Of a stretch of 45,560 nt of DNA, positions 17,801-20,800 are shown one piece after another (positions within the stretch are counted from its first letter, which is position 1; each line of letters begins with the position of its first letter). The position numbers were made by a program. The stretch lies in sequence record NC_049955.1; one strand, written 5' to 3'. The stretch comes from Escherichia phage ev243.

Positions 17801-20800
17801 AGCGCGCGTTATCTTGGTACGGCACTGTACTGGATAGCCGCCAGTATCAATATCAAACCGGGCCATGATTATTATTTTTACGTTCGCAGTGTGAACACCG
17901 TTGGCAAATCGGCATTCGTGGAGGCTGTCGGTCAGCCGAGTGATGATGCATCAGGCTATCTGGATTTTTTCAAAGGCGAGATAGGGAAAACCCATCTGGC
18001 TCAGGAGCTGTGGACGCAGATTGATAACGGTCAGCTTGCGCCTGACCTGACTGAAATCAGGACGTCCATAACGGATGTCAGCAATGAAATAACACAGACC
18101 GTCAATAAGAAACTGGAAGACCAGAGTGCAGCGATCCAGCAGATACAGAAGGTTCAGGTTGATACAAATAATAACCTGAACAGCATGTGGGCAGTGAAGC
18201 TGCAGCAGATGCAGGACGGACGCCTTTATATCGCGGGTATCGGTGCCGGTATTGAGAACACCCCTGACGGCATGCAGAGTCAGGTGCTGCTGGCAGCAGA
18301 CAGGATTGCGATGATTAATCCTGCGAATGGCAACACAAAGCCGATGTTTGTTGGTCAGGGCGATCAGATATTCATGAATGAAGTGTTCCTGAAACGCCTG
18401 ACGGCCCCCACCATTACCAGCGGCGGTAATCCTCCGGCATTTTCCCTGACATCAGACGGGAGACTGACGGCGAAAAATGCGGATATCAGTGGCAGTGTGA
18501 ATGCGAACTCAGGAACGCTCAACAATGTCACGATTAACCAGAACTGTACGATTAAGGGCATGCTGGAGGCGACCCAGGTCAGAGGAGATTTCGTTAAAGC
18601 TGTATCAAAAGCCTTCCCGAAAAAAGTCGGTACGTGGGGTAACACGGAAACACCAAACGGTACGGTTACAGTCACCATCAGCGATGATCATAACTTTGAC
18701 CGCCAGATTATTATTCCGCCCATTATTTTTAACGGTATAGCGTATGACGATCCGGGGAGCGGAAATAACCCAGGAGGCACGCGATACACGGGTTATGGTT
18801 TTGAAGTTCGCAAAAACGGCGTATTAATCGCATCCAGAGAAACTAAAGGGGCCATTCCCGGTAGTTACAGTGCAGTTATTGATATGCCGAGTGGCAGGGG
18901 AAGCGTCACTCTGGAGTTTAAGATTTTCCAGAAAGGCAATCAGGGGGCAGGCAATATCACCGACTGTACGGTGATTGTGACCAAAAAAGCCGCTTCCGGC
19001 ATCAGTATTCGTTGAAATATTTATAACCCCAATAAAGGGCGTCAGGAATGACGCCTTTTTTATTGCAGAAAAGCGAGAGGTAATTATGCGTAAAGTTTGT
19101 GCAGCAATTTTGTCCGCAGCCATTTGTCTGGCCGTATCCGGTGCGCCTGCATGGGCGTCTGAACATCAGTCCACGCTGAGCGCGGGGTATCTTCATGCCT
19201 CGACGAACGTCCCCGGCAGTGATGATCTGAACGGGATTAACGTGAAATACCGTTATGAGTTTACGGACACACTGGGGCTGGTGACGTCATTCAGCTATGC
19301 AGGAGACAAGAATCGCCAGCTGACCCGTTACAGCGATACCCGCTGGCATGAAGATTCCGTTCGTAACCGCTGGTTCAGCGTAATGGCGGGGCCGTCTGTG
19401 CGCGTGAATGAATGGTTCAGCGCGTATGCGATGGCGGGTGTAGCTTACAGCCGTGTGTCGACTTTCTCCGGGGATTATCTTCGCGTAACTGACAACAAGG
19501 GGAAAAAGCACGATGTGCTGACCGGAAGTGATGACGGTCGCCACAGCAACACGTCTCTGGCGTGGGGGGCTGGCGTGCAGTTTAACCCGACCGAATCCGT
19601 GGCCATTGATATTGCTTATGAAGGCTCCGGCAGTGGCGACTGGCGCACTGACGGTTTCATCGTGGGTGTCGGTTATAAATTCTGATTAGCCAGGTAACAC
19701 AGTGTTATGACAGCCCGCCGGTTCAGGCGGGCTTTTTTGTGGGGTGAATATGGCAGTAAAGATTTCAGGTGTACTGAAAGACGGCACAGGAAAACCGGTA
19801 CAGAACTGCACAATCCAGCTGAAAGCAAAACGTAACAGCACCACGGTGGTGGTGAACACGCTGGCCTCAGAAAATCCGGATGAAGCCGGGCGTTACAGCA
19901 TGGACGTTGAGTACGGGCAGTACAGCGTTATTCTGTTGGTGGAGGGATTCCCGCCGTCACATGCCGGGACCATTACCGTGTATGAAGATTCTCAACCCGG
20001 TACGCTGAATGATTTTCTCGGTGCCATGACGGAGGATGATGCCCGTCCGGAGGCATTGCGCCGTTTTGAGCTGATGGTGAATGAAGTGGCACGTCATGCC
20101 GGAGCGTCATCACAGAGTGCAGCGGCGGCAAAGAAATCCGAAACGGCAGCAGCCTCATCGAAGAATGCGGCGAAAACCTCAGAAACGAATGCAGCTAACA
20201 GCGCACAGGCGGCAGCGGCCTCGCAGACTGCATCGGCAAACTCCGCGACAGCAGCCAAAAAATCAGAAACCAGCGCGAAAAATAGCGAGACAGCCACAAA
20301 GGCCAGCGAAAAAAACGCAAAATCCAGCCAGACGGCAGCGAAAACCAGTGAGACGAATGCCAAAGACAGTGAAGCCAACGCAAAGGTGAGCGAAACAGCG
20401 GCGGCGAACTCGGCGAAAGCATCGGCAGCAAGCCAGACGGCAGCAAAAGCAAGTGAAGATGCTGCCAGAGAATACGCAAACCAGACAGCAGAGCCGTACA
20501 GATATGTTTTACAGCCGCTGCCGGATGTGTGGATACCCTTTAATGATTCGCTGGATATGATTACGGGCTATTCTCCGGGTTATAAAAAAGTGAAGATTGG
20601 TGATAATGTGGTTCAGGTTGCCAGTGATAAACAGGTTAATTTCAGTCGCGCATCAACGGCAACATATATCAACAAATCTGGCGAACTGAAAACGGCGGAA
20701 ATTAATGAGCCGCGATTTGAGTGTGATGGCCTGCTTATTGAGGGACAAAGAACGAACTTCTTCCAGAACAGTACAGACCCTTCGAAGTGGAATAAGTCAA

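Follow-up and report, generated by a model that had tools for sequence, protein, structure and literature searches.

The central tail fiber gene J of Escherichia phage ev243 very probably encodes an intact, functional protein that was produced by homologous recombination among three exchangeable modules. A lambda-like hub, a long allele of the fiber shaft and a receptor-binding domain of the phage 434 type are combined in one reading frame, and the porin recognized is most likely OmpC; we hold this combined interpretation with good confidence. The window, meaning the whole stretch of DNA that was analyzed, is a complete virion-oriented cos-to-cos lambdoid genome of 45,560 bp. It begins (positions 1..120) with a lambda-type left cohesive end (GGGCGGCGACC...), and positions 45441..45560 end in ...CCGACAGGTTACG. 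Phage 2G7b is the closest record, with 93% and 83% coverage of the two genome halves, and the window is identical to no record. The gene and its segments are:

15518..19015, + strand: gene J, tail tip attachment / central tail fiber protein, 1165 aa
15518..17932, + strand: module A, hub domains and two FNIII/Ig domains, aa 1-805, lambda-like, GC 0.590
17933..18397, + strand: module B, alpha-helical shaft and start of the beta-prism, aa 806-960, "long" allele, GC 0.497
18023..18115 (about), + strand: zone with 28 extra residues, aa 836-866, visible as gaps at aa 836-856 and 860-866 when J is aligned with lambda and 434 (BLASTP, MAFFT)
18398..18517, + strand: conserved linker with the recombination junction, aa 961-1000, GC 0.567
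18518..19015, + strand: module C, Ig-like receptor-binding domain of the phage 434 type, aa 1001-1165, including the stop codon, GC 0.478

The ORF list and translation place J at 15518..19015 on the + strand and give a product of 1165 aa, 33 residues longer than J of phage lambda (NC_001416 15505-18903; NP_040600; 1132 aa, ending in ...KKQALGISVV). These lengths, the difference between them and the terminal sequences of both proteins had been given correctly by an earlier reading of the sequence alone, as the ORF, its translation and BLASTP all confirm. The protein is a full-length member of the lambda TipJ/gpJ central tail fiber family: it scores 2340.9 bits against the NCBIfam model NF049904 lambda_TipJ (curated cut-off 1950), with residues 1-1165 aligned to positions 1-1163 of the 1163 in the model. 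Six Pfam matches, all far over their cut-offs, follow one another in the order Phage-tail_3, FNIII-A_GpJ, Ig_J, Ig_J_second, Phage_Tail_Tip and Ig_GpJ_C, which corresponds to hub, FNIII-A, two Ig/FNIII domains, prism and Ig-like receptor domain. Their spans are 86-207 (PF24801), 330-498 (PF13550), 610-714 (PF24421), 716-818 (PF24489, the second Ig domain), 872-1000 (PF09327, the tail-tip fiber prism) and 1029-1164 (PF12421, the Ig_GpJ_C receptor domain). The architecture described for lambda gpJ comprises hub domains, FNIII-1/2, an alpha-helical shaft, a beta-sheet prism and a receptor domain (PMC11101478).

The position of J in the tail operon is also as in lambda. It lies 3′ of M-L-K-I and 5′ of lom and stf, the reading frames upstream of it (109, 232, 247 and 223 aa) correspond in size to M, L, K and I of lambda, and the tail region aligns collinearly with that of annotated lambda-like phages (95-97% identity). 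Two antisense reading frames at 18364..18678 and 18824..19123 matched no phage protein family and are probably spurious. Promoter-like and terminator-like matches within and after J were no more numerous than expected from shuffled sequence.

To describe how J departs from lambda, it was aligned with six other J proteins, those of lambda, 434, PhiR46_1, Lambda_ev087, PhiR70_1 and 2G7b (MAFFT, BLASTP). Overall identity to lambda J in BLASTP is 82%; the match is near-perfect up to residue ~805 and diverged, with gaps, beyond it. By segment, the two proteins share 791/805 residues (98.3%) in module A, 70/127 in aa 806-960 with a 28-aa gap in lambda, 38/40 (95%) in the linker, and 64/156 (41%) with 13 gap positions in aa 1001-1165. 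Module A is 98.0-98.6% identical to its counterparts in all six proteins. The earlier claim of a lambda-like N-terminus of ~800 aa is thus borne out. Its companion claim, that the distal ~330 aa are diverged, holds as far as the divergence itself is concerned (55% and 41% identity) and needs correction on two points: the divergence begins at aa 806 (nt 17933), upstream of position 18000, so that it affects the distal 360 aa, and it is uneven, with two diverged modules on either side of a 40-aa conserved stretch. The 33 extra residues likewise have two sources, 28 in the shaft and a net 5 (+9/-4) in the receptor domain.

The first of these boundaries has a structural counterpart. Residues 1-807 of gpJ were resolved by cryo-EM inside the lambda tail-tip complex, and the remainder forms the protruding fiber (PMC12617516). 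The boundary between modules A and B at aa ~806 therefore corresponds to the point where the fiber exits the hub, and the lambda-like hub of ev243 J (aa 1-805) would sit inside the tail tip.

Module C, the receptor domain, matches that of 434 J at 159 of 165 residues (96.4%) without a single gap and with an identical C-terminal end. It exceeds the lambda domain by a net 5 residues and shares 41% identity with it; identity to the PhiR70_1/A8, PhiR46_1 and 2G7b types is 45-46%. At the nucleotide level (18518-19015), identity is 97.4-97.6% to 434 and lambda h434 and 100% to mEp332, Kati, PhiR34_1, PhiR42_1, PhiR68_2 and phiSTEC1575-Stx2k. Near-identity and a shared indel pattern accordingly place the domain in the 434 (h434) type. 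It falls outside the A8-type OmpC-binding domain (9wcb), with 45-46% identity to PhiR70_1 and ev087 and 47% to 9wcb in a structural alignment, and it lacks the near-identity over the C-terminal 150-250 aa that characterizes the lambda-type LamB-binding domain. An AlphaFold2 monomer model renders it as a beta-sandwich (pLDDT 73-88). Foldseek and sequence searches of the PDB returned only gpJ fibers, namely lambda (8XCK, 8XCJ, 8IYK) and the "A8 gpJ 713" chimera (9wca, and 9wcb with OmpC), and no solved structure of a 434-type domain. The receptor domain is a known allele class that has already been sequenced many times; the finding is real but ordinary. The sequence-only reading had missed this identity with the 434/h434 allele, the two unrelated origins of the 33 residues and the commonness of the allele as a whole.

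The junction between shaft and receptor domain could be located from the nucleotide positions at which 434 and PhiR70_1 differ. In the interval 17900-18472, 131 of these informative sites are of the PhiR70_1 type and 6 of the 434 type, whereas from 18481 to the stop codon 202 are of the 434 type and 3 of the PhiR70_1 type. The last PhiR70_1-type site is at 18472 and an unbroken 434-type run starts at 18481, so the crossover maps to nt 18472-18481 (aa ~986-989), inside the conserved linker. Identity in the linker is 92-95% for five of the six proteins in the comparison and 87.5% for ev087. Module B is 98-99% identical to the shafts of PhiR70_1, PhiR46_1 and ev087, phages that carry other receptor domains, and only about 55% identical, with the 28-aa gap, to those of lambda, 434 (~55-56%) and 2G7b. 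Conversely, the 434-type domain is paired with a short shaft in 434 and in 17 protein clusters. Among the best 120 clusters, the long shaft was found with the 434, A8 and PhiR46_1 domains and the short shaft with the 434 domain, and a third shaft allele was also present. These varied pairings indicate that shaft and receptor domain assort independently and reassort freely. The third allele has the same length of 155 aa, is ~60% identical, and occurs with a 434-type receptor domain in Stx-converting phages (LC744186 47033-47497; FM180578, phage 2851). J of ev243 thus offers a clean natural example of lambdoid phages reassorting their tail fiber, with one exchange point at aa ~806, where gpJ exits the tip complex, and another within the conserved linker that immediately precedes the receptor domain. 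Both are close to the junction logic of engineered gpJ chimeras used for DNA delivery.

The 28 additional shaft residues fall within aa 819-871, a stretch without Pfam coverage that corresponds to the helical shaft. In an AlphaFold2 monomer model of aa 801-1165 (mean pLDDT 55.7), helices are predicted at residues 811-823 and 826-837, followed by a single 52-residue helix at 840-891 that spans the insertion (pLDDT ~50-70). The prism region is of low confidence in this model, as expected when one chain of an interdigitated trimer is modeled alone. Hydrophobic residues along the long helix are spaced by 3-4 positions with one register shift (L844, I847, I851, V854, I858 ... I873, I876 ... L887, M890). 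The long allele would thus carry a helix 28 residues beyond the lambda or 434 length and, if the helix is part of a continuous coiled coil, would add about 4 nm to the shaft; the helix prediction is of moderate confidence, and any structural effect of the longer shaft is to be read with the same caution. Internal duplication was considered as the source of the extra residues and ruled out, the best self-alignment score being a negligible 17.

The long form is the normal one. It matches the 1163-position NCBI TipJ model from end to end, an alignment of 25 database homologues, drawn from the matches most similar to this J, has it as consensus, and shaft length varies widely among distant homologues. 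The end-to-end match and this wide range indicate that it is lambda and 434 that carry a short variant, the two laboratory references, so caution is needed when the fiber geometry of lambda is generalized. In distant J homologues from Ralstonia, Burkholderia and Achromobacter phages, the same stretch measures about 121 to 208 aa. That the lengthening of 28 residues (approximately four heptads) is a functional adaptation, and not neutral length variation, is a tentative possibility that we do not favor. If it were true, the longer shaft could set the reach of the receptor domain through LPS or O-antigen, could tune the receptor-binding signal that travels along shaft and prism to tail-tip opening, and could, along with the six receptor-domain substitutions relative to 434, give a range of OmpC alleles unlike that of laboratory phage 434. 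A search of the literature found no published experiments on a longer J shaft.

What receptor is ev243 likely to use? Phage 434 uses OmpC, and lambda equipped with the 434 fiber gene binds OmpC (PMC11101478, PMC12502783). The natural gpJ C-termini A8, 1A2 and phi330 also use OmpC (PMC12502783, PMC11338833), which indicates that the choice of porin resides in the receptor domain. Within J, this domain is the only substantial difference between lambda and 434, the two being near-identical up to the linker. Because ev243 carries the 434 allele (96.4% identity), OmpC is its most likely receptor and not LamB, as judged from sequence. The earlier suggestion that the receptor may not be LamB is supported to this extent, and near-identity to lambda J across the C-terminal 250 aa, which would speak against it, is clearly absent. 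By analogy with lambda, the trimeric fiber-tip domain would dock onto a trimeric outer-membrane porin, here most likely OmpC and not LamB, and docking would trigger tip opening and DNA ejection. This yields a receptor prediction for ev243, OmpC and not LamB, that is both confident and testable. The papers available contained no receptor experiments or plating data for phages with exactly this J (mEp332, Ayreon, phi458, ev099 and the PhiR phages). The sequence of the gpJ "1A2" chimera, sought in order to test whether it is of the 434 type, is absent from the supplements. The hybrid lambda h434 imm21 (OM418627) was also compared with its parents. It is lambda-identical to about J codon 700, switches at ~700-740 and is 434-identical thereafter, and its lom, stf and tfa genes and its effector-gene region are 434-like too. 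It is therefore ruled out as a clean receptor-domain swap: its 434 DNA extends from ~J codon 700 past lom and stf, so that it has the 434 lom, stf and tfa as well and does not isolate the receptor domain.

Several other readings of these data were weighed. Six substitutions separate the receptor domain from that of 434 over its 165 residues (N1047D, D1078N, R1127G, I1136V, Q1138H and G1143W), and the domain might have drifted toward another porin (OmpF, NmpC/Lc-type or PhoE) or toward only certain OmpC alleles. Small changes can matter in this system: with one to four substitutions in J, lambda and phage 21 can gain the ability to use OmpF or OmpC (PMC11336670), and the A8 and 1A2 C-termini, both of which bind OmpC, accept different members of a set of 23 OmpC alleles (PMC11338833). 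However, at five of the six positions ev243 has the consensus residue of 25 database homologues, a set picked from the matches most similar to this J, and it is 434 that has the rarer one. An identical domain is also found in K-12-propagated phages (mEp332, PhiR34_1), as 434 is, and 96.4% identity is far above the 41-47% seen between known specificity classes. We therefore consider such a shift quite improbable. A scarcely credible reading is that J is simply the lambda protein after divergence, still directed at LamB, and that its differences reflect neutral drift. The overall domain architecture and fold are indeed as in lambda, but the sharp boundaries at which identity falls from 98% to 55% and 41% coincide with drops in GC content and with near-identity to the alleles of other phages, a pattern that is the signature of recombination and not of drift. 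The receptor domain, moreover, is 41% identical to that of lambda against 96% to that of an OmpC-using phage.

Host range could also be set mainly by the side tail fibers, which would leave the difference at the J tip of little consequence. An intact stf (689 aa) with a distinct C-terminal part does lie downstream, and the side fibers of Ur-lambda speed adsorption 10-30 fold (PMC12617516). Yet lambda side fibers are dispensable for plaque formation, while binding of J to its receptor is required for ejection (PMC12617516), and OmpC-binding gpJ chimeras redirect delivery to cells without lamB (PMC11338833). A dominant role for stf is thus very unlikely, and a recombinant J directed at OmpC remains the preferred reading.

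Other features of the window that touch on adsorption or were recorded alongside it are:

19086..19685: lom (Pfam Ail_Lom, E 9.9e-123)
19744..21813, + strand: stf, 689-aa side tail fiber with a GTG start, a second organelle of adsorption 3′ of lom (Pfam phage_tail_N, E 1.4e-69; phrog_1419, tail protein)
25469..26422, - strand: OmpT-like omptin protease (Pfam, E 2.8e-130)
31615..31673, - strand: lambda cIII thermoregulator RNA element (Rfam, 88.5 bits, gathering score 50)
41639..42721, - strand: general porin, 360 aa, late region (Pfam Porin_1, E 3.6e-152; NCBIfam OmpC subfamily)

The stf gene is intact, with a conserved N-terminal collar domain and a "GTA_spike_fiber" domain. It is followed by two small reading frames on the + strand, 21810..22088 and 22098..22391 (phrog_1361 and phrog_1443), which occupy the place of the lambda tail-fiber assembly gene. 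Three cargo genes on the - strand (22584..23252, 23798..25282 and 25469..26422) are found in the low-GC b-region, where GC is 0.385-0.44 at 23001-27000; besides the omptin, they encode a 494-aa alpha/beta hydrolase and a SAM-dependent methyltransferase. The cIII thermoregulator was the sole family detected in an Rfam scan of the window, which returned nothing near J.

The phage-encoded porin shares 90.4% identity with Lc, the porin of phage PA-2, and the same gene is present in phage 434B, where IS5 disrupts it. PA-2 is an OmpC-using phage whose Lc porin reduces OmpC in lysogens. For this reason, a phage with an OmpC-type J and an Lc-type porin may exclude its own kind. A strict linkage between the 434-type domain and a phage porin gene was unsupported: the domain is present in about half of the lambdoid records that carry the porin, and none of the porin-carrying records is a Stx-converting phage. 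The linkage between porin and 434-type J is loose.

The combination of modules seen in ev243 is common. Over its full length it was found in 13 phage records representing 11 phages, at 94.9-98.3% nucleotide identity: phiSTEC1575-Stx2k, PhiR42_1, vB_EcoS-569R4, Kati, PhiR34_1, PhiR68_2, mEp332, ev099, Ayreon, cdtI and phi458. Kati and PhiR68_2 are 99.9% identical over 18000-19015. The receptor domain is present in 72 phage records, many of them Stx1- or Stx2-converting. A match covering at least 80% of 17900-19015 is present in 1,168 of the 5,426 complete E. coli genomes, about one in five, and exact matches to the 3′ segment of J were found in strains CRE10, VTB97432v and OkiPb01685. A protein database search gave at least 8,000 matches, with a single 98%-identical cluster holding 2,965 members. 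The same J allele is intact in many phages that plaque on K-12, ECOR13 or MC1061. The allele is already known and very common, and these findings leave current understanding as it is.

Among the known systems close to J of ev243, the J proteins of the 11 phages just listed (Kati, PhiR68_2, PhiR42_1, PhiR34_1, mEp332 and the others) have the same three-module combination over the full length and differ from it by point differences only; the rest of each phage genome is another mosaic. Phage 434 J (OL657226/OL657227, 1137 aa) shares a 98.6% identical hub, the receptor domain and the C-terminal end, but its shaft is of the short lambda type, with 28 fewer residues and 56% identity across aa 806-960, and six substitutions distinguish the receptor domains. 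Lambda J (PDB 8IYK, 8XCJ, 8XCK) is alike in family, domain order, genomic position, aa 1-805 (98.3%) and linker (95%). It differs in a shaft that is 28 aa shorter and 55% identical and in a receptor domain of 41% identity with several indels, which in lambda binds LamB. The gpJ "A8" C-terminus (Eligo chimera; 9wca, and 9wcb with OmpC) has the same fold, is experimentally OmpC-dependent and occurs naturally on the same long shaft (in PhiR70_1 and ev087, with 98-99% identity in module B), whereas its receptor domain, at ~46-47% identity to that of ev243, belongs to a separate allele class.
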